From assembly GCA_964348725.1 (NCBI GenBank), contig CAYGDG010000001.1, positions 1,898-65,897 of the forward strand: a DNA stretch of 64,000 nt, given 5' to 3'. Source of the DNA: an uncultured Candidatus Saccharibacteria bacterium (GTDB lineage: Bacteria; Patescibacteriota; Minisyncoccia; Phycocordibacterales; UBA9973). The notes below the pieces were generated by a model that was not told the DNA's origin, did not search any database, and saw only the letters and a list, made by a program, of their open reading frames with translations. Made by a program: the position numbers and the translations under genes. Within the stretch, counting starts at the first letter, position 1; every line of letters starts with the position of its first letter. This document shows, piece after piece, positions 18,900-53,586 of the stretch.

Positions 18900-20387
18900 A
18901 TGGTGATGTACAAGACACATCATCGGTATTTATATGTGTGTATTTTTATGTTATTTTGCTTATGCAGTGCGCGTATTTCTTTTGCCGCAGTCATTATCAA
19001 TGAAATAAAATTAAGCCCCACAGCTGAGCGATTTATAGAGCTGTATAATACGGATGATGCTGAAATAGATCTGACCGGCTGGTATATGCAGAGGAAAACA
19101 GCGACTGGCGCGAGCTGGGGTTCGCTTGTTTCAAATCCGAATTTTGAAGGCAAGAAAATAGATGGCCATGGATATTTTTTGATTTCTCGGAGTGAGATGA
19201 TGGGCGCGGATATCGTATTTTCTTCGCTCACCCTGACTGAATCAAATTCCATACAATTAAAAAATGCTTCAGGTGATGTCGTGAATAAAATCGGCTGGGG
19301 TGAGGCAAATGATTGTGGCGGCACATGCGCGGGAAATCCAGGCGAAGGGGAAAGCATCGCAAAAATGGCTGATGCATGGGTGGCGGGCGTACCTACGCCG
19401 CATGCGACCAATGCTGCCGGTAGTGAGAATAACACTGAAAATACAAATATCGGCAGTACATCTTCCGACGATAGTTCCTCGGCAGCTGCGGTGCCTGAAG
19501 CAAAGGCCGAGACAAAAAAGAAAGAAGAGCTGAAAATACAGGTAAAAATTTCAGGAAAAAAATCGGGGCTTGCCGGCATACCCATGGAATTTGAAGCGCA
19601 AGCGACGGGGCTTTCGGGTGAGCCGCTATCTTCCGGAAAACTTTTCTGGAATTTCGGGGACGGGGATTCATTGGAAGCGCAGAGCTCGCAGAAATTCAGC
19701 CACACATATTATTATCCCGGTGACTATGCGCTGACGCTGGAATATGCGCAAAATCCGTACGGCTATACACCGGATGCGAGTCATAAGATCATCATAAAAA
19801 TTTCAGCTGTTTCAACCGTGATTTCGCGGGTGGGGGACGGCAAAGATTTTTTCGTGGAGCTTTCAAATCCTTCGGACTATGAGCAGGATATCTCGCGCTG
19901 GATGCTTATTTCCGGCGCAAAAAGTTTTTCTTTGCCGAAGAATACTATATTGCCAGCGAAAAAATCCATTATCATTTCCGGTAAAATTACAAAGTTCATG
20001 CCAGAAGATGCGGCAGGGTTACGATTGCTGACTTCTGCGGGCGAGACGGCATTTGATTATGGAGCATCTTTGGTTCCGGCAGTCATGGAAGTAATAGAAG
20101 AAGTGGTTGCAGAAAAGCCGCCCGAGCCGGAGGCTCGGGCGGCTATGTCTATTTCTGAAATAAGTGAAGCGGAAATCCCGGACGATTTACCTATCAGCGC
20201 TCTCAGTGCCGCTGTCGCTGGTGCTGACAGCATTGATGACAGCGGCACTCGTGGCGGGAGTAGCGGAGGAAGCTTGTTCTTCTGGCTTGGCGGCTTCGGT
20301 CTTCTTCTCTTCGCCGGTGCCGGCGTTTACTTCATCCGCCGGAGCGGCAGTGTCAGTACTGGCAGCGGGTTCAAACTCCAAGAATGA
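18900..20387 (+). CDS. Surface protein with two lamin-tail domains flanking a PKD-like domain, plus a C-terminal TM anchor
   Basis: AAVIINEIKLSPTAERFIELYNTDDAEIDLTGWYM matches the LTD consensus. A second copy is DFFVELSNPSDYEQDISRWML. FWNFGDGDS...YYYPGDYALTL is PKD-like. C-terminus GGSSGGSLFFWLGGFGLLLFAGAGVYFIRRSG. Confidence 0.6.
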   Translation: MVMYKTHHRYLYVCIFMLFCLCSARISFAAVIINEIKLSPTAERFIELYNTDDAEIDLTGWYMQRKTATGASWGSLVSNPNFEGKKIDGHGYFLISRSEMMGADIVFSSLTLTESNSIQLKNASGDVVNKIGWGEANDCGGTCAGNPGEGESIAKMADAWVAGVPTPHATNAAGSENNTENTNIGSTSSDDSSSAAAVPEAKAETKKKEELKIQVKISGKKSGLAGIPMEFEAQATGLSGEPLSSGKLFWNFGDGDSLEAQSSQKFSHTYYYPGDYALTLEYAQNPYGYTPDASHKIIIKISAVSTVISRVGDGKDFFVELSNPSDYEQDISRWMLISGAKSFSLPKNTILPAKKSIIISGKITKFMPEDAAGLRLLTSAGETAFDYGASLVPAVMEVIEEVVAEKPPEPEARAAMSISEISEAEIPDDLPISALSAAVAGADSIDDSGTRGGSSGGSLFFWLGGFGLLLFAGAGVYFIRRSGSVSTGSGFKLQE

Positions 20388-44755: not shown

Positions 44756-46585
44756 ATGGACTTAAAATACATCAGGAATTTTTCAATTATCGCCCATATT
44801 GACCACGGCAAGAGCACTCTTGCGGACAGGATGCTGGAAATCACTCACACGATTGAGGAGCGCAAAATGCGCGACCAGGTGCTAGATTCTATGGAGCTGG
44901 AACGCGAAAGGGGAATTACGATTAAGATGCAACCCGTCAGAATGGAATACACCACCCCCAGCCCCCTCCTTGGAAAAGGAGGGGAGCAAAAATACGTTTT
45001 GAACCTTATAGACACGCCGGGACACATAGACTTCTCATACGAAGTATCCCGCGCTCTGAAGGCCGTGGAAGGCTCTATACTGCTCGTAGACTCTACGCAG
45101 GGCGTACAGGCACAGACATTGACTACTTTGCAAATGGCGCGCGATGGCGGGCTTAAAATCATTCCAGTGCTTTCAAAAATAGACTCGCCGCTTTCCCGCG
45201 TGGATGATGTAAAAGAAGAAGTGGTAAAGCTCCTTGATTGCGATCCGGATGAGATATTGCTCGTCTCCGGACGCACCGGCGAAGGCGTGGCCGAGCTCTT
45301 GGCCGAAGTCATCAAGCGCGTGCCGCCACCGCAGGAATCATATCAGGGCGATAATAATTTGCGCGCGCTCGTTTTTGATTTTAAATATTCCAACCATCGC
45401 GGCGTCATCGTGTATGTACGCGTGCTGGATGGCAAAGTGCGAAAAGGGGACAGCCTCATCTTCTCCGCTTCAAATGAAAAATTTAACTCGCTTGAAGCCG
45501 GTACATTTTCCCCAGAAGAAACGCCGCGCGAATTTTTGGCCGCCGGAGATACCGGCTACCTGGTAACCGGCATCAAGAAGCCGGGCATAGCCTCAGTGGG
45601 AGATACCATTACCATGCTCAAAAATCCCTTGCCCGCGCTTGGCGGATATATGCAGCCGCGGCCGGTCGTGTGGGCATCTATTTTCCCGGAAGACGCGGAT
45701 GAATTCAATGAATTGAAAGCGGCCCTCGGAAAATTAAAGCTTTCTGATTCGGCATTTTCATACGAAGAAGAATCCTCTGGTTCGCTCGGGCGCGGTTTTC
45801 GCTGCGGCTTCCTTGGCATGCTCCACTTGGAAATAATCACCGAGCGCTTGAAAAGAGAATTTGATTTAGAGCTCGTCATCACCACGCCGTCCATCACCTA
45901 CGAGGTGACGATGATAAATGGAAAGACAGAGAAAGTATACTCACCATATTTTTTCCCGGATGATGGGTTTATCAAGCAGGTCTTTGAGCCGTGGGTGGCG
46001 GTGAAAATAATCACGCCGGCACCGTACCTCGGTGGTATCATGCAATTACTTTTTGATCACGAGGCAGAAGTAGGGGAAACAGAAAACTTCGGCGATGCGC
46101 GTTCAGCAGTATCCGTAAAAATGCCGCTTCGCGAGCTGATGCGGAACTTTTTTGATGAATTAAAAAGCGTCTCTTCCGGCTATGGTTCAATTTCATATGA
46201 AATAGGCGAGATGCGCGAGGCGAATGTAACACGTTTAGATATTTTAGTGGCGGACGAAGCCGTGCCGGCATTTTCCCGCGTCGTATCCAAAAAGCGCGTG
46301 GAAGAAGAAGCGGAGAACGCCGTAGAAAAATTACATACTATTTTACCAAAGCAGATGTTTACGACGAAGATCCAGGGCAAAGCATTAGGCAGAATAATCT
46401 CATCCCGCACTATCCAGGCATTCAAAAAAGATGTCACCCAGCACATGTACGGCGGCGACATCACCCGCAAGATGAAGCTCCGCGAGAAGCAGAAGAAAGG
46501 CAAGAAGAAGATGAAAGACCGCGGACGCGTAAATATCCCTCAGGACGTGTTCCTGAAGATGATGCGCTCGGGGGATAATAAATAA
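44756..46585 (+). CDS. lepA: Elongation factor 4 (LepA)
   Basis: IRNFSIIAHIDHGKSTLADRML, DSMELERERGITIK and NLIDTPGHIDF motifs, plus the LepA-specific C-terminal domain. It contains a small in-frame GC-rich hairpin insertion. Confidence 0.9.
   Translation: MDLKYIRNFSIIAHIDHGKSTLADRMLEITHTIEERKMRDQVLDSMELERERGITIKMQPVRMEYTTPSPLLGKGGEQKYVLNLIDTPGHIDFSYEVSRALKAVEGSILLVDSTQGVQAQTLTTLQMARDGGLKIIPVLSKIDSPLSRVDDVKEEVVKLLDCDPDEILLVSGRTGEGVAELLAEVIKRVPPPQESYQGDNNLRALVFDFKYSNHRGVIVYVRVLDGKVRKGDSLIFSASNEKFNSLEAGTFSPEETPREFLAAGDTGYLVTGIKKPGIASVGDTITMLKNPLPALGGYMQPRPVVWASIFPEDADEFNELKAALGKLKLSDSAFSYEEESSGSLGRGFRCGFLGMLHLEIITERLKREFDLELVITTPSITYEVTMINGKTEKVYSPYFFPDDGFIKQVFEPWVAVKIITPAPYLGGIMQLLFDHEAEVGETENFGDARSAVSVKMPLRELMRNFFDELKSVSSGYGSISYEIGEMREANVTRLDILVADEAVPAFSRVVSKKRVEEEAENAVEKLHTILPKQMFTTKIQGKALGRIISSRTIQAFKKDVTQHMYGGDITRKMKLREKQKKGKKKMKDRGRVNIPQDVFLKMMRSGDNK
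44951..44987 (+). repeat. GC-rich hairpin element ACCACCCCCAGCCCCCTCCTT-ggaaa-AAGGAGGGGAGC, in-frame inside lepA
   Basis: Near-identical to 51730..51765 inside tsaD. The 9-bp stem CCCCTCCTT/AAGGAGGGG is perfect. Confidence 0.55.
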
Positions 46586-48397: not shown

Positions 48398-49096
48398 CTA
48401 TGAATTAAGTTCGCCGCTCATTCTACGTAATTTTTCGAAAAGCAGCATGTTGATAATTGTCGCTACCCACAGGAAGCCGAACACTTGCAAAAAATTGCTT
48501 CCGTTATTCTCCATTATAAAGAAATTAAACGCAGCATGCAAGGCTATGGACACCAAAATACCCGCGATGAGGTACATCCGCTTCTTTGCCGGATTCATAA
48601 AAAATGCTAATCCCATAGAAATACCTATCATACCGCTCGCCACCGCGTGGAGCAGGGTAGACCCGAGGAAACGCAGTTGGCTCGTCAAGAGTCCTACAGT
48701 TGCTTGATCAAGTGAGAGAGGTTTTATGAGGAAGAGCGTGTTTTCCAGTGCAGCGAAACCAAGCGCCGCGGTGATGAGATATATGGCCCAGTCTATCGGC
48801 TCTTTGATGTATGCAGTGTTGTACAGCACGATCATCACTGCCATATATTTTATGAGTTCTTCCGCAGCTGACCACGAGATGATCTGTCCGAGATGCGAGC
48901 CGATGTGTGCCTGCAGGAATTTTTCTATGGGGAGAACGAATATCACGGCTGTCATGCCGATAAGGAAAGTGATCGTCAGGAGGCCTTTCGGTTCCGGCTT
49001 TTCGCGATTCTCACGCAGCCAGAACCATAACCATACCAGAGAGGGAATGATGCCGCCGAGAAGCGCGAGGCCCAAGATTTTCGGGTCGTTAGTCAT
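48398..49096 (-). CDS. PrsW-family intramembrane protease (M82-like)
   Basis: Polytopic, with the conserved SAAEELIKY (EExxK), GFAALENTLF (FxxxEN) and LLHAVASGMIG (His) motifs; 232 aa. Confidence 0.6.
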   Translation of the reverse strand: MTNDPKILGLALLGGIIPSLVWLWFWLRENREKPEPKGLLTITFLIGMTAVIFVLPIEKFLQAHIGSHLGQIISWSAAEELIKYMAVMIVLYNTAYIKEPIDWAIYLITAALGFAALENTLFLIKPLSLDQATVGLLTSQLRFLGSTLLHAVASGMIGISMGLAFFMNPAKKRMYLIAGILVSIALHAAFNFFIMENNGSNFLQVFGFLWVATIINMLLFEKLRRMSGELNS

Positions 49097-51224
49097 GAGG
49101 GGTTTTCCCGTCCATGGCGGGCCATTTTTCCACCATGAGTAAATTTTTTTCAGCGGATGGCAAGAGCGACCAGATCTCTTCCGTGACGAATGGCATAAAA
49201 GGGTGGAGCACTTTCAGGCAATCTTTCCAGAGGGGCAGCAGCGCGGCTTTCATCTCTGGATTTTTTTTACTTTCTTCTACTATCTCATCAGCAAACCTAT
49301 GCCAGATGTAATGATAAATTTTTTCAGACGCCAAGTGAAAGCGGTATTGTTCCATGTCGCTGGTGATGTCTTCCGCGATTTTTCTAAATTCTTCGGCAAG
49401 TAACTTGGTACTTGGAGTACTGAGTTCACTTGGTACTCCAAGTACCAAGTCAGCATTTTCCAAAATATACCGCGTGATATTCCAGATCTTATTCGCAAAA
49501 TTCTTATAGCCTTTTATTTTATTTTCATCTATCTTGCTATCGGTCCCTGGAGCAGTGCCCACGATCAGTGCCATACGCCCCGCATCCGCGCCGAATTTAT
49601 CCGCGATTTCCAGCGGATCTATGCCGTTATTCAAAGACTTGCTCATCTTCTGTCCTTTCGCATCGCGCACCGTGCCGTGCAAATATACATTTTTGAAAGG
49701 CACTTCACCGAGGGCGTATTGGCTCATCAGCACCATACGAGCTACCCAGAAGAAAAGAATCTCATAGCCGGTTTCTAATACATCCGTCGGGTGGAAAGTT
49801 TTTAAATCTTTGTTTTCATTTGGCCAGCCGAGCGTGGAAAAAGTCCACATACCGGAAGAGAACCAGGTGTCCAGCGTGTCATCATCCTGCTCCCAATCCG
49901 AACCGGGGGATTCAATACCGACAAAAATTTCCTCGCCCTTATACCACACCGGCACGCGGTGACCGTACCATATCTGGCGGCTGATGCACCAGTCGCGCAA
50001 GTTTTCTATCCAATGGAAATATGTTTTGGAAAAATGCTCTGGGATTATTTTTATATCGCCGTTTTCAAACGGCTCGCGCATGAGGTCTTTGAGCGTCTTC
50101 TCGCCACGGGCAGGAATCGGCTTATTTACATTCACGAACCACTGGAGCTTTGGCAACGGCTCTATGATGCCGCCCGTGCGCTCTGCTGTACCGATATTTT
50201 GCTTCACATCTTCTTCTTTTTCCAAAAGATTTTGTTCACGCAGCCAAGCTACTACTATTTCCCGCGCTTCGGTAGTTTTTTTGCCGAGCATATCTGCGCC
50301 CACGGTCATCTTCGCATATTCATTTATCACCTGCGGGCGGGGGAGGCTGTGCCGGTCCGCTATTTCCCAGTCAATCATAGAATGCGCGGGGGTCACACCG
50401 AGCGCGCCGGTGCCGAAATCTTTTTCCACTGCCTCATCCGCGATGATTTTTATATGGAGCGGTACGCCGCAGAATTCCAAGTCGTATTCCTTGCCGATAA
50501 ATTCCTGATAGCGCGGGTCTTCCGGATGCACGGCTACGGCTGTATCGCCGACTTTTGTTTCTGGTCTGGTGGTAGAAATAGAAATAGGAAAATCTTTTGT
50601 ATATTTAAAAGTATAGAGCTTCGCGGTGCGCTCTTCGTATACGATTTCGTCGTCGGAAATAGTGGTCTGTCCTTTCGGATCCCAGTTCACGATGCGATGC
50701 CCGCGGTAAATGAGCCCGTCATCATACATCTGCTTGAACATCGTGTTCACTGCGAGATTTCTTTTTTCATCCAGCGTAAATGCCTCGCGCGACCAATCAC
50801 AAGAAGCGCCCATAATACGCATCTGTGAAGTCATGGTGCTGCGATTTTCTTCCACGAATACATCTATTCTTTTGAGCAGCTCTGCTCTGCCCAGATCGTG
50901 GCGAGATTTACCTTCTTTTTTATATATTTCTTTTTCTACTTTTGATTGCGTAGCGATGGAAGCATGGTCAGTGCCGGGTAGCCATAGAGTTTTGAAGCCC
51001 CTCATTCTTTTATAGCGAATCATTATATCTTCTAGCGTCAAAAATAGCGCATGACCCATATGTAGCACCCCCGTGGCATTTGGAGGAGGCATCATGATCG
51101 TAAAAGGTTCTGTCCTGTTGCCCGGCAGATTATCAGGATTAAAAAAACCGCTCTTTTCCCAGAGCTCGTACATACGGGATTCGGTATTTTTCGGGTCGTA
51201 TGGTTTCAGGAATTTCTCATCCAT
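49089..51224 (-). CDS. valS: Valyl-tRNA synthetase (compact form lacking the C-terminal coiled-coil)
   Basis: PPPNATGVLHMGHALFLTLEDIMIRYKRMRG and KMSKSLNNGIDP motifs. ORF 49089..51263. The start MDEKFLKPYDP at 51224 aligns with canonical ValRS N-termini and avoids overlap with tsaD. Confidence 0.9.
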   Translation of the reverse strand: MDEKFLKPYDPKNTESRMYELWEKSGFFNPDNLPGNRTEPFTIMMPPPNATGVLHMGHALFLTLEDIMIRYKRMRGFKTLWLPGTDHASIATQSKVEKEIYKKEGKSRHDLGRAELLKRIDVFVEENRSTMTSQMRIMGASCDWSREAFTLDEKRNLAVNTMFKQMYDDGLIYRGHRIVNWDPKGQTTISDDEIVYEERTAKLYTFKYTKDFPISISTTRPETKVGDTAVAVHPEDPRYQEFIGKEYDLEFCGVPLHIKIIADEAVEKDFGTGALGVTPAHSMIDWEIADRHSLPRPQVINEYAKMTVGADMLGKKTTEAREIVVAWLREQNLLEKEEDVKQNIGTAERTGGIIEPLPKLQWFVNVNKPIPARGEKTLKDLMREPFENGDIKIIPEHFSKTYFHWIENLRDWCISRQIWYGHRVPVWYKGEEIFVGIESPGSDWEQDDDTLDTWFSSGMWTFSTLGWPNENKDLKTFHPTDVLETGYEILFFWVARMVLMSQYALGEVPFKNVYLHGTVRDAKGQKMSKSLNNGIDPLEIADKFGADAGRMALIVGTAPGTDSKIDENKIKGYKNFANKIWNITRYILENADLVLGVPSELSTPSTKLLAEEFRKIAEDITSDMEQYRFHLASEKIYHYIWHRFADEIVEESKKNPEMKAALLPLWKDCLKVLHPFMPFVTEEIWSLLPSAEKNLLMVEKWPAMDGKTPHD

Positions 51225-51243
51225 ATGCCCGAAATTATAGCAT

Positions 51244-52422
51244 TTACAAGGACATCCCGCCATCAGCGCGGAAGTTTTTCTTTGTATTCGCGCGGCGGAA
51301 ATACCCAGTCAAAGCAATCATCAGCGCATTATCAGCAGAAAGCGAGCCGGTAGGGAATATCGGCTTGATGCCGTGCTGTTTTGCCGCGGCAGTGAGCGTC
51401 TTTCGCAAGTGCCTGTTCGCGGACACGCCGCCAGCCACTATGAGCGTCTTCGCGCCGTATTTTTCTATGGCTTTCATCGTCTTATGCGTCAGCGTTTCCA
51501 CCACGGCATCCTCAAATTCTTTAGCTATCGCCATTTTCATTTTGTCATTTTGCAAAATGTTTGAATGTTCTTTTTTGAGATCGCGGATTAAATACAATAC
51601 TGCCGTCTTCAGTCCGGAAAAAGAGAAATCAAAATTTTTCGTGTACATCATCGGGCGTGGGAGTTTGATTTCCTCTCCTCCTTTTTGAGGAGGAGTGCCC
51701 TTCAGGGCGAGGTGGTGATTTTTTGAATTACCACCCCCAACCCCCTCCTTATCAAGGAGGGGAGCTTTCCGTGCTAATTCTGCCAATCTTGAAATTTCAG
51801 GTCCGCCCGGATACGGCAATTCCATCATCCGCGCCACTTTATCAAATGCTTCGCCGGCGGCATCATCCAGCGTCTGGCCTATTTTTTTATATTTCAAAAA
51901 GCTTTCAGAAAGCACGAGTTCCGTGTGTCCGCCGGAGACGAGGAGTGAGAGCACCGGGAATTTCCATTTTGGCAACGAAAAAGTTTTCTTATTCGCAATG
52001 ACGGAAAGAATATGCCCCTCCATATGGTTCACCGGTATCACCGGCACGCCCCATTTTTTGGAAAGTTCTTTGGCAAAGACGATCCCTGTCCACAGCGCGG
52101 GTTCTAATCCCGGCCCGGAAGTTACGGCTATCATATCTACCCCGTTAGAGGCAGAGGGTCGCTGCGATCCCTCGCGGCCTCTAACGGGGTCTATTTTCAT
52201 CCCTGCTTTTTTGAGCGCTTTTGCTAGCACTATCGGCAAGTTCTTCATATGCTCGCGTTTGGCCAGCATCGGAAAAACTCCGCCGTATGGGGAGTGGATC
52301 GCCGTCTGTGAGGATACGATATTTGCCAGGACTTTGAAATTTTTACCCTTTACTTCCAATATGCTGATGCCGGTGTCGTCGCAGGAAGTTTCTATGCCCA
52401 AGACAATAGTCTTTTTTGTCAT
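51244..52422 (-). CDS. tsaD: tRNA N6-adenosine threonylcarbamoyltransferase TsaD (Kae1/Gcp family), with a roughly 30-aa in-frame insertion
   Basis: MTKKTIVLGIETSCDDTGISIL N-terminus, GHTELV, and LPRPMMYTKNFDFSFSGLKTAV. ORF 51244..52461, with the internal start at 52422. Confidence 0.85.
   Translation of the reverse strand: MTKKTIVLGIETSCDDTGISILEVKGKNFKVLANIVSSQTAIHSPYGGVFPMLAKREHMKNLPIVLAKALKKAGMKIDPVRGREGSQRPSASNGVDMIAVTSGPGLEPALWTGIVFAKELSKKWGVPVIPVNHMEGHILSVIANKKTFSLPKWKFPVLSLLVSGGHTELVLSESFLKYKKIGQTLDDAAGEAFDKVARMMELPYPGGPEISRLAELARKAPLLDKEGVGGGNSKNHHLALKGTPPQKGGEEIKLPRPMMYTKNFDFSFSGLKTAVLYLIRDLKKEHSNILQNDKMKMAIAKEFEDAVVETLTHKTMKAIEKYGAKTLIVAGGVSANRHLRKTLTAAAKQHGIKPIFPTGSLSADNALMIALTGYFRRANTKKNFRADGGMSL
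51670..51765 (+). repeat. Composite GC-rich hairpin element (three stem-loops) in-frame inside tsaD. The 3' unit ACCACCCCCAACCCCCTCCTT-atca-AAGGAGGGGAGC matches the lepA element.
   Basis: ctcctcc-ttttt-gaggaggag; ggtggtgattttttgaattaccacc; cccctcctt-atca-aggagggg. It encodes LLDKEGVGGGNSKNHHLALKGTPPQKGGEE on the minus strand. Confidence 0.55.
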
Positions 52423-52461
52423 ATCGCGATTATACCTTTTTTCTGGTAGAATGGAAGCCAT

Positions 52462-53040
52462 ATGGAAATGAGTCCAGATTTCAAATGCATCATCATATCC
52501 GCGCCGTCCGGTGCGGGGAAGACGACTATCGCGCGCGCACTCCTCGCCGCAAACCCGGCGCTCGCATTTTCAATATCCGCCACCACGCGCGCGCCGCGCG
52601 GCAGGGAAGAAAATGGCAGGGAATATCATTTTCTTTCGGCGGAAGAATTTAAAAAAAATATAGAAGCAGATGGTTTTGTGGAATATGAAGAAGTGTATTC
52701 GGGCGTGTATTACGGCACGCTCCGTGCTGAGTTGGAAAAAATGTCTACTGGAGGCAAATGCCCGGTATTTGATGTGGATGTAAAAGGCGCGGTGAATTTG
52801 AAAAAAATATTCGGTGCGCAAGCCCTCTCTATTTTCATCCACCCCGGCTCGCTGGAAAATCTCCGCCGCCGCCTGGAAGCCCGCGGCACAGAACCTGAAG
52901 AAAAAATAAAAGAGCGCCTCGCCCGCGCGGCGGAAGAGATGTCCTACGCTCCGGCATTTGATGTGGTGGTAATAAATGAAGTCCTAGAAACTGCAAAAAA
53001 GGAAACTATAGAAAAGGTGAGAACATTTTTAGGAAAATAA
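52462..53040 (+). CDS. gmk: Guanylate kinase
   Basis: IIISAPSGAGKTTIARALL P-loop, SISATTRAPRGRE, and YYGT; 192 aa. Confidence 0.85.
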   Translation: MEMSPDFKCIIISAPSGAGKTTIARALLAANPALAFSISATTRAPRGREENGREYHFLSAEEFKKNIEADGFVEYEEVYSGVYYGTLRAELEKMSTGGKCPVFDVDVKGAVNLKKIFGAQALSIFIHPGSLENLRRRLEARGTEPEEKIKERLARAAEEMSYAPAFDVVVINEVLETAKKETIEKVRTFLGK

Positions 53041-53052
53041 AAACCCTCCGGA

Positions 53053-53586
53053 TTATTCCGGAGGGAAGTATTGTCTGTCTAATTCTTTACACATCTCACC
53101 TAGAAAGAAACCTCCTATAATGAAAGGTAAGAAACAGAATAGCATTTCCAATGTCGTCCAGTTGTAACCGACCAGGATAGAAACGATAGCTGTGAGAATA
53201 CTCGCAAACACTGCGCCGCAGAGGATACCGCCAGTATATGCCATAAATATTGTGGCAGAAAAGCATATGAATACGGCATTTGAAACTCCGCTTATCACAA
53301 CGAATCCGGCAACCATTCCACCCCAGACGGTCATTTTACCGATTTGCTTTTTAATCAATGCAAATTTTGGAATCGGCATCCATTTTTCACAAGCGGTACT
53401 TTTAGCCATAAAAAGGGAAGCCAATGAAACAAGAAGGACTGCCGGAATGGCATTCAGTATGATGGCATTCTTTATCTGGTTCTCGGGCGAAGCCGTGAAT
53501 TTGTGGATGAAATAAAAACTGAGTATAAATAGTAGATAAAAACCGCTTCTGAGAGCGGCAACGGAGGGGAGCTGAGTGTTTTTCAT
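53053..53586 (-). CDS. Polytopic membrane protein. Hypothetical.
   Basis: Five to six predicted TM helices and no motif. A GC hairpin ccctccgga-ttat-tccggaggg overlaps its stop codon at 53044-53065 and may act as a terminator. Confidence 0.4.
   Translation of the reverse strand: MKNTQLPSVAALRSGFYLLFILSFYFIHKFTASPENQIKNAIILNAIPAVLLVSLASLFMAKSTACEKWMPIPKFALIKKQIGKMTVWGGMVAGFVVISGVSNAVFICFSATIFMAYTGGILCGAVFASILTAIVSILVGYNWTTLEMLFCFLPFIIGGFFLGEMCKELDRQYFPPE

Follow-up and report, generated by a model that had tools for sequence, protein, structure and literature searches.

The window analysed here is the whole 64,000-nt stretch of DNA from an uncultured Candidatus Saccharibacteria bacterium (GenBank assembly GCA_964348725.1, contig CAYGDG010000001.1, positions 1,898 to 65,897 of the forward strand), and the element under study is a 37-nt unit that lies in frame within lepA and recurs as part of a larger insert in tsaD. 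The lepA gene, encoding elongation factor 4 (EF4), was delimited by open reading frame (ORF) and domain comparison at 44756..46585 on the plus strand; its 609-aa product is intact and retains all EF4 domains. The tsaD gene was taken from its first ATG at 51244..52461 on the minus strand, and the gene call on the Logan contig is 392 aa. The 37-mer in lepA, ACCACCCCCAGCCCCCTCCTTGGAAAAGGAGGGGAGC, was located at 44951-44987 by exact match and was recognized by a triplex-motif (TM) detector as a solo TM unit on the minus strand. As an earlier note on this DNA had stated, it is translated in frame, encoding TTPSPLLGKGGEQ between RMEY and KYVLNLIDTPGH.

Read on the minus strand, the lepA unit is GCT-CCCCTCCTT-ttcc-AAGGAGGGG-GCT-GGGGGTGGT: a pyrimidine arm is followed by a loop, a purine arm, and a linker, and the unit closes with a G/T block in mirror order to the purine arm, G facing G and T facing A. 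In window coordinates, the third-strand block GGGGGTGGT comes first (44951..44959, minus strand; sequence and detector, laid out as the TM pattern in PMC4666352), followed on the plus strand by the hairpin arm CCCCTCCTT (44963..44971), whose minus-strand complement is the purine arm AAGGAGGGG, the hairpin loop GGAA (44972..44975), which is the sole part that varies between copies, and the hairpin arm AAGGAGGGG (44976..44984, from an inverted-repeat search) and then AGC (44985-44987), which is a conserved end. The inverted repeat described in the earlier note, perfect over 9 bp and with a 4-nt loop, was thus recovered exactly, but its third block, ACCACCCCCAG, the mirror of the purine arm, had been overlooked. 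TM repeats are defined by a pyrimidine arm, a complementary purine arm, and a G/T mirror block (triads G*G.C and T*A.T or A*A.T), with stems of 6-15 nt and short loops. The detector, written for this layout, scored the lepA unit at a 9-bp stem and 8 mirror triads and found exactly 3 TMs over the window, one being the lepA unit and the other two lying inverted in tsaD, compared with 0 in 20 shuffles; the count of 3 units for the source organism refers to the 64-kb window. A 21-mer and the hairpin pattern each occurred twice in the window and in none of 100 dinucleotide-preserving shuffles. Folding was computed with Watson-Crick pairs only, and as RNA the lepA unit formed a stable hairpin (-21 kcal/mol, z = -4.6).

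The second copy noted earlier, ACCACCCCCAACCCCCTCCTTATCAAGGAGGGGAGC at 51730-51765, has the same DNA orientation as the lepA copy and differs from it by one base outside the loop, but tsaD lies on the minus strand and reads it as APLLDKEGVGGG. That observation holds, although the membership of this copy in an inverted doublet of ~93 nt (about 51673-51765) had gone unseen. Because two inverted TM units are present, the tsaD insert is described as module B, a spacer, and module A; the whole (51673..51765; sequence, detector, and alignment) is in frame and encodes APLLDKEGVGGGNSKNHHLALKGTPPQKGGEE. Module B is a plus-strand TM (51675..51717; detector and three-way covariation) with the layout CTCCTCCT-ttttg-AGGAGGAG-[mini-hairpin TGCCCTTCAGGGC]-GAGGTGGTG, in which the second loop of 13 nt is itself a mini-hairpin and goes beyond the 1-6 nt range of Holder et al. 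(2015, PMC4666352). The 12-nt spacer ATTTTTTGAATT (51718..51729) is the place taken up in some cassettes by a DUF559 gene, and module A (51730..51765, minus-strand TM; detector) is the second copy, of the same family as the lepA unit. Detector scores were a 9-bp stem and 9 triads for module A and 8 and 8 for module B. Folding gave four hairpins in succession for the doublet (-52.8 kcal/mol, z = -4.3), which adds about 28 residues relative to solved TsaD.

The window doublet was aligned with 12 others from Paceibacteria, giving 13 in all, whose core of ~95 nt is 71-95% identical to the window copy; their flanks are unrelated, with near-random identity, and their gene contexts differ. Conservation ends at ...GGGGAGC, 98% of the cells pair, and four pairs show compensatory changes. 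One position co-varies in the pyrimidine arm, purine arm, and third block together (T/A/A in 10 doublets, C/G/G in 3), which lends indirect support to a possible triplex fold. A second, unrelated palindrome also lies in frame in tsaD at 52139-52190 (minus strand; ACCCCGTTAGAGGC...GCCTCTAACGGGGT, 14-bp perfect stem with inner GAGGG/CCCTC); it encodes PVRGREGSQRPSASNG where solved TsaD has a gap of 15 residues, and this region is different in the nearest relative.

In LepA, the insert forms residues 66-78. Alignment of orthologues bore out the extra residues, with a net gain of 8 over most orthologues rather than the 12-13 codons put forward earlier. In alignment with the solved EF4 structure 5IMQ, the insert showed as a gap of 7 residues, placed between two G-domain strands. 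An AlphaFold model of mediocre quality (mean pLDDT 65), used solely for strand-coil-strand context, had a strand at 61-66, coil at 67-78 with pLDDT <50, and a strand at 79-84. The flanking strands are presumably the second and third of the G domain, by numbering from general knowledge of GTPases. The insert thus lies at a beta-hairpin tip, in a loop on the G-domain surface, and the loop of EF4 domain I named in the earlier note is supported by both the structural gap and the model.

The closest LepA relatives of the window protein are from Patescibacteria (Paceibacteria / 'Nomurabacteria') at 90% identity. A short loop, such as KFGNEN, occupies the insert site in 84 of the 120 best orthologues, and about 30% of the listed orthologues carry inserts in the same loop. 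The closest relative (Nomurabacteria nzgw476, L125) is syntenic, with the gene order MurJ-LepA-DivIC-Grx ... HSP20-PrsW-aaRS-TsaD (aaRS, aminoacyl-tRNA synthetase), and has neither the lepA nor the tsaD insert. In a neighbour-joining tree of LepA from which the loop was left out, insert-bearing orthologues were scattered, each with close insert-free relatives; one such pair, P0011 and P0022, is 87% identical in nucleotides. These patterns show that the lepA unit was gained in the window's lineage. In P0016, P0041, P0038, and P0040, the loop holds the element in both orientations and as a doublet, and in other orthologues it holds other hairpin families (TPNPSP..GEGGQRPGEV; GPERSEGQ); gain, or gain together with loss, has therefore recurred at the site. 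No target-site duplication was seen at lepA, tsaD, P0011/P0022, or P0016/P0021, where the empty sites had already diverged. An AATAC direct repeat around the lepA insert was considered as a target-site duplication and rejected, as it represents two conserved Tyr codons.

Further inserts were observed in the same loop. A second triplex-type element of Paceibacteria, CCTCACCCCAAACCCCTCTCCT-tataa-AGGAGAGGG-TGGCCAAAGGCC-GGGTGAGG with the peptide TPNPSPYKGEGGQRPGEV, is present in the orthologues P0011, P0109, P0066, P0088, P0093, and P0033 and at locus L128 (3001-4845). The GPERSEGQ family fills the loop in about 15 orthologues, and the loop is a hot spot. The LepA of P0040 (L126, 10001-11854) is 82% identical to that of the window and far off on the tree; its insert, TTPKPLLEKGGEE, agrees with that of the window in site and orientation and has 4 differences from it in 42 nt, which may reflect independent insertion, retention, or patch transfer.

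An exact 20-mer of the repeat, AAGGAGGGGGYTGGGGGTGG, was searched in 596 Gb of sequence with one genome per species and was found at at least 119 loci, with several per genome in some cases. The genomes include cultured isolates and represent, among other groups, Paceibacteria, Saccharibacteria, Desulfobulbales, Geobacterales, Sphingomonadales, Cytophagales, Ignavibacteria, Zixibacteria, Armatimonadota, and Phycisphaerae. Outside Patescibacteria, the copies are seemingly intergenic and in either orientation. About 18 of about 31 copies in Patescibacteria, and all 3 units of the window, are in frame inside ORFs, those of the former deep inside long ones. Hosts confirmed by Pfam are LigA, RNase R (four genomes, same site), UvrA, a GatA-type amidase, FtsK, MnmA, RecG, IF2, and the ATP synthase beta subunit (AtpD), to which TsaD and LepA are added. 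The earlier idea that copies enter surface loops of essential proteins is backed by structure for the lepA loop (5IMQ and AlphaFold), and further copies exist in number in other genomes. Conservation is likewise at the nucleotide level, as had been proposed: the same 20-mer is read oppositely in lepA and tsaD, is intergenic in other phyla, and is identical at synonymous sites of unrelated genes.

All 20 of 20 intragenic copies from Patescibacteria, which represent about 15 distinct sites, are in a single codon phase, which reads KEGVGGG or, in the other orientation, TTPNPLL, and in which codon boundaries coincide on both strands. The alternative phases would encode PPPTPS or HPQPPP (polyproline), RRGLGVV (with AGG AGG codons), or GGGWGW, and we infer that selection removes copies in those phases. 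Multiple inserts within one protein were also observed: a LigA of Nomurabacteria (L011, 4436-6580) has three separate and apparently repeat-encoded inserts (PPSPLQGEGQGGEV, NPLLNKEGVGGG, SSPLVKGGIEGGW), and an FtsK (L070) has two, so that single proteins can accumulate several. Elsewhere, tandem arrays of a 190-bp unit, each with a triplex motif (L074, 1537-2127), and 30-31-nt tandem repeats of the purine arm and third block alone in a Desulfocapsa metagenome-assembled genome (L062) suggest local amplification of parts of the element. Viral contigs gave only 4 matches, with no sign of phage carriage. A protein search with the 40-aa doublet peptide returned 0 word-sharing candidates, although proteins containing the peptide are known from ORF translations of the loci, and an exhaustive search with the 32-aa encoded peptide gave 8 representatives and was uninformative. 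Low-complexity words seem to be excluded in word-indexed searching, and peptide censuses of such inserts would undercount.

Because the sequence is biased towards purines on one strand and pyrimidines on the other, a chance low-complexity match, or else an assembly artefact, was considered, and was judged exceedingly improbable. By our estimate about 2 occurrences of the 20-mer are expected by chance in 596 Gb against the at least 119 loci found, nearly all of which have the complementary arm, which was outside the query, before the match, and shuffled sequence yielded no matches. An assembly artefact is unlikely because the identical insert-bearing LepA protein is found on two contigs of the assembly collection, one of them the Logan assembly of ERR3094292.

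It was also considered whether the lepA insert is a loop extension selected as protein, or an RNA hairpin selected in place as a translational pause or for mRNA stability. Its in-frame position in an intact lepA ORF, the share of listed orthologues with inserts in this loop, the stability of the RNA hairpin, and the single codon phase throughout are all compatible with this. However, lepA and tsaD read the same DNA on opposite strands into different peptides, identical DNA is intergenic in other phyla, the nearest relatives lack the insert, and the inserts of the LepA loop comprise several unrelated sequence families, so selection in place is very unlikely as the source of the unit. The lepA insert may have been exapted later.

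Genes associated with the repeat were sought in two directions. Starting from the element, all ORFs within 2.5 kb were clustered over 123 loci, and the sole neighbour that recurred across phyla was a protein of ~120 aa directly beside the element at 14 or more loci. It belongs to DUF559 (PF04480, E about 1e-31), with a Vsr-like PD-(D/E)XK fold; a profile of the TM-adjacent proteins matched PDB 3HRL, a DUF559 protein from structural genomics (E = 8.5e-33), and, more weakly, the catalytic domain of I-Bth0305I (3R3P, E = 4e-4). No transposase-like cluster was found among the neighbours in the 123 loci, for which the RAYT (REP-associated tyrosine transposase; REP, repetitive extragenic palindrome) profile was not run. 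In Paceibacteria, a doublet built on the plan of the tsaD insert (71-88% core identity) lies directly upstream of the DUF559 start codon. At L014 and L051, which are Geobacter-type loci, the spacer between two inverted TMs is exactly where the gene is found, and at several other loci it lies between direct copies of a two-TM composite.

Starting from the gene, 80 metagenome loci were picked by DUF559 homology alone, and a TM was present within 300 nt of the gene in 67 of them and on both sides in 34; under a looser hairpin-only criterion, 71 of the 80 qualified. TM density in the same loci was 3.16 per kb near DUF559; it was 0.15 per kb in the remaining non-ORF sequence, about 20-fold lower, and 0.044 per kb inside ORFs. 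TMs of lineage-specific sequence thus flank DUF559 genes, and cultured isolates with a TM sequence of their own at DUF559 include Deinococcus proteolyticus, Sphingomonas parapaucimobilis, and Picosynechococcus PCC 7002. In Escherichia coli K-12, the DUF559 gene ycjD (L212, NC_000913.3 1351170-1351470) has its stop codon inside the hairpin-like CACCCTCTCCCTGAAAGAGCGAGGGGG, and a unit of the E. coli triplex motif, TM_ECO/BoxC, follows about 190 nt downstream. In 5426 E. coli genomes, a 52-mer from this locus has a median of 17 occurrences per genome, none of them annotated among the matches listed. DUF559 was present on 35 of 72,556 plasmid records. No paper was found that connects DUF559 to repeats, whether these or others, so that the association is apparently new and the partner gene undescribed.

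Alternatively, DUF559 could be a free-standing homing-type gene that parasitises TMs, with the doublets as its target or landing site rather than its product. Its position exactly in the spacer at L014 and L051 would suit this, as would the strand preference of the TMs (upstream 48 on the gene strand against 24, downstream 47 on the opposite strand against 22), the kinship of DUF559 with the catalytic domain of I-Bth0305I, and the abundance of gene-less doublets. Homing would not explain where the TMs themselves came from or how they spread, and many cassettes have direct flanking composites or a doublet only upstream; we consider it unlikely.

Spread without an enzyme has somewhat more in its favour and is regarded as possible, if on the unlikely side. 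A TM would stall replication, the nascent strand would switch template at microhomology, and the TM patch would be copied, while DUF559 leaders would merely carry TMs, for example as a hairpin hiding the ribosome-binding site. A leader role is consistent with the purine arm AAGGAGG about 10-20 nt before the DUF559 ATG in several cassettes. DNA polymerase is blocked in vitro by PIT (potential intrastrand triplex) elements, and E. coli shows instability at TM sites (PMC4666352); that no target-site duplication was seen agrees as well. The likeness of lepA to the DUF559-leader copies extends beyond the element, to GAAT(T)AC on the left and AAAATAC on the right at the same offset after ...GGGGAGC, and both motifs are already present in insert-free lepA genes, which hints at repair or template switching via microhomology at lepA, but this likeness was noticed post hoc and at one site. 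Moreover, spread without an enzyme would not account for lineage-specific TMs on both sides of DUF559 in distant phyla, nor for the scarcity of TMs in the leaders of other genes (0.15 per kb).

The reading preferred here, which we hold to be probable as a whole, is that the 37 nt are a solo repeat unit of the BoxC/PIT/TM type; we infer further that repeats and DUF559 gene make up one selfish unit and that the lepA copy is a non-autonomous derivative of it. By analogy with REP/RAYT, or with a homing endonuclease and its site, repeats and gene would travel together, and solo units and gene-less doublets would be the non-autonomous derivatives. Copying to new sites might proceed through nuclease-induced repair or template switching at structure-prone DNA, and DUF559 would in this sense mobilise the repeat. 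Of the copies made within genes, only those in frame, in permissive loops, and in the least harmful phase (KEGVGGG / TTPNPLL) would survive selection. Several points weigh against this reading. There is no DUF559 gene within the 64-kb window, no target-site duplication or defined junction was seen, with fast loop divergence blurring the boundaries, and the near-identical insert of P0040 in a distant lineage could reflect patch transfer rather than independent insertion. The architecture of the cassettes is heterogeneous (gene inside the doublet, doublet confined to the upstream side, or direct repeats flanking the gene), and the association of DUF559 with the repeat is compatible with either of the two driving the other. 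Near the TMs of E. coli, Holder et al. saw no genes for mobility, and they saw a triplex neither in vivo nor in double-stranded DNA (PMC4666352).

More tentatively, and with the odds somewhat against it, DUF559 (YcjD-family, Vsr-fold) may be the missing partner of BoxC/PIT/TM repeats in general, and the two may form a hitherto unrecognized class of nuclease-associated mobile DNA that spans phyla. If so, the class would be unlike both RAYT/REP and the MITEs (miniature transposable elements with inverted repeats) of DDE transposons, with each nuclease lineage recognizing its own folded motif, and its gene-less derivatives would be a routine cause of change in the surface loops of essential proteins in Patescibacteria. 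The link to DUF559, even at E. coli ycjD, makes the origin of these repeats experimentally approachable. In-frame copies in LepA, TsaD, LigA, RNase R, UvrA, FtsK, IF2, and the ATP synthase beta subunit mark selfish repeats as a regular source of loop insertions, here in the setting of the ultra-small genomes of Patescibacteria, and this bears on annotation, on marker-protein alignments and phylogenies, and on the insertion tolerance of essential proteins.

Other palindromes were present in the window. The aminoacyl-tRNA synthetase ORF at 49089-51263 (minus strand) has an in-frame palindrome with an 18-bp stem at 49403-49450 (ACTTGGTACTTGGAGTAC...GTACTCCAAGTACCAAGT), which encodes DLVLGVPSELSTPSTKL and does not have the form of a triplex motif; compared with the nearest relative, L125, the region has 5 residues more. 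Together with the palindromes in lepA and tsaD, this makes three adjacent essential genes with four palindromic inserts. The C-terminal region of a putative surface protein (ORF 18900-20387, plus strand) contains GC-rich perfect palindromes of a different sequence family at 20116-20144 and 20205-20249 (13-bp and 12-bp stems). A GC-rich hairpin at 53044-53065, CCCTCCGGA-ttat-TCCGGAGGG, lies in the region of the 12-nt gap between the convergent guanylate kinase gene (52462-53040, plus strand) and ORF 53053-53586 (minus strand); rather than a triplex motif, it is probably a terminator acting in both directions.

Known elements of other kinds were searched for and set aside. Rfam returned only tRNAs at the gathering threshold for the window and 18 other loci, and only chance-level matches (miRNA models, DUF1874 RNA) for the tsaD region; no known RNA family therefore applies. 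Literature matches to the literal sequence of the unit were confined to unrelated eukaryotic G-quadruplex papers. G-quadruplex, Chi-like, integron attC-like, and DNA-uptake-sequence readings were dropped, as the consensus did not fit and the mirror-repeat and hairpin anatomy covers every conserved block. On the C-rich strand, the hairpin of many proteobacterial copies is followed by a T-run; an intrinsic terminator was rejected, as copies face both ways relative to their neighbours and PIT elements are without terminator activity (PMC4666352).

Among known repeat systems, REP/REPIN-RAYT systems (PMC2817692, PMC3333891, PMC3733652) are similar in having short GC-rich hairpins as singlets and inverted doublets, many gene-less copies for each small nuclease gene, a gene flanked by repeats, and a repeat sequence that tracks the enzyme lineage. 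They differ in that their gene is a Y1 (HUH) transposase rather than a PD-(D/E)XK Vsr-like DUF559 protein, in lacking the extra mirror block, and in being extragenic. The GTAG/CGTC tag of REPs was not found in the present unit, which ends in ...GGTGGT(A) and GCTCC.... Of the earlier description as miniature mobile or REP-like, insertion is upheld by the insert-free L125 and by the tree, so that mobility is suggested by presence and absence patterns, while a strict REP is not, given the lack of the tag and of any RAYT-like neighbour found.

MITEs (Correia, ERIC, Coxiella QMITE; PMC10969869, PMC5896051) are likewise small non-autonomous inverted-repeat DNA with in-frame ORF fusion. The tsaD doublet has inverted halves and looks like an internal-deletion derivative of a gene-bearing unit. 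No target-site duplication was seen at the diverged empty sites. The differences are that there is no DDE-transposase parent, the gene-bearing relatives carrying DUF559 and not a known transposase, and that the solo unit of 37 nt is far shorter. For the enzyme, I-Bth0305I (PDB 3R3P, PMC3239194) is a Vsr-fold homing endonuclease encoded by an intron in phage, whereas the DUF559 genes here are free-standing and encode putative nucleases of about 115-130 aa; because the DUF559 profile matches its catalytic domain, a selfish-DNA role of the Vsr fold has a precedent.

The closest precedent for in-frame copies in essential genes is, by analogy, that of the Rickettsia palindromic elements (RPEs; Ogata et al. 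2000, reviewed in PMC10969869), which are about 100-150 bp, fall into ten families, and are confined to Rickettsia. In both cases palindromic repeats lie in frame in unrelated housekeeping genes of a reduced-genome bacterium and are translated, RPEs adding extra peptide segments at apparently fold-compatible positions. By description rather than by sequence, RPEs lack a triplex-type mirror block and are larger than the 37-nt solo unit and 93-nt doublet. We know of no enzyme gene that goes with RPEs.

BoxC and PIT elements were reportedly treated by Bachellier in the 1990s and by Hoyne & Maher in 2000 and 2002. To our knowledge, BoxC/PIT/TM repeats have been known since the 1990s with no origin, function, or means of spread assigned. 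For TM_ECO/BoxC, a single strand forms a triplex in vitro; 23 copies are present in MG1655, 'always intergenic' and often in inverted pairs of two subtypes, with no promoter or terminator activity, ties to local genome instability, and no transposase or integrase nearby (PMC4666352). The present repeat shares the three-block layout, the GC-rich composition, the length of about 37 nt, the high conservation in multiple copies, the frequent inverted pairs of two subtypes, and the local genome variability, and all 3 window units have the three blocks and belong to a dispersed, multi-copy repeat with inverted pairs. It differs from TM_ECO in lying inside essential genes in frame rather than always between genes, in occurring in Patescibacteria and many non-proteobacterial phyla, and in having DUF559 as a recurrent neighbour, E. 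coli ycjD included, whereas no mobility-related neighbour was found in PMC4666352. Its blocks are CCCCTCCTT/AAGGAGGGG/GGGGGTGG instead of CCCTCNCCC/GGGNGAGGG/GGGNGAGGG; the window unit, CCCCTCCTT-N4-AAGGAGGGG-GCT-GGGGGTGGT, follows the same plan as the TM_ECO consensus CCCTCNCCC-N3-6-GGGNGAGGG-N3-GGGNGAGGG (PMC4666352) without matching its sequence. The repeat is therefore a different family of the same kind, a new sequence family within the known BoxC/PIT/TM repeats.

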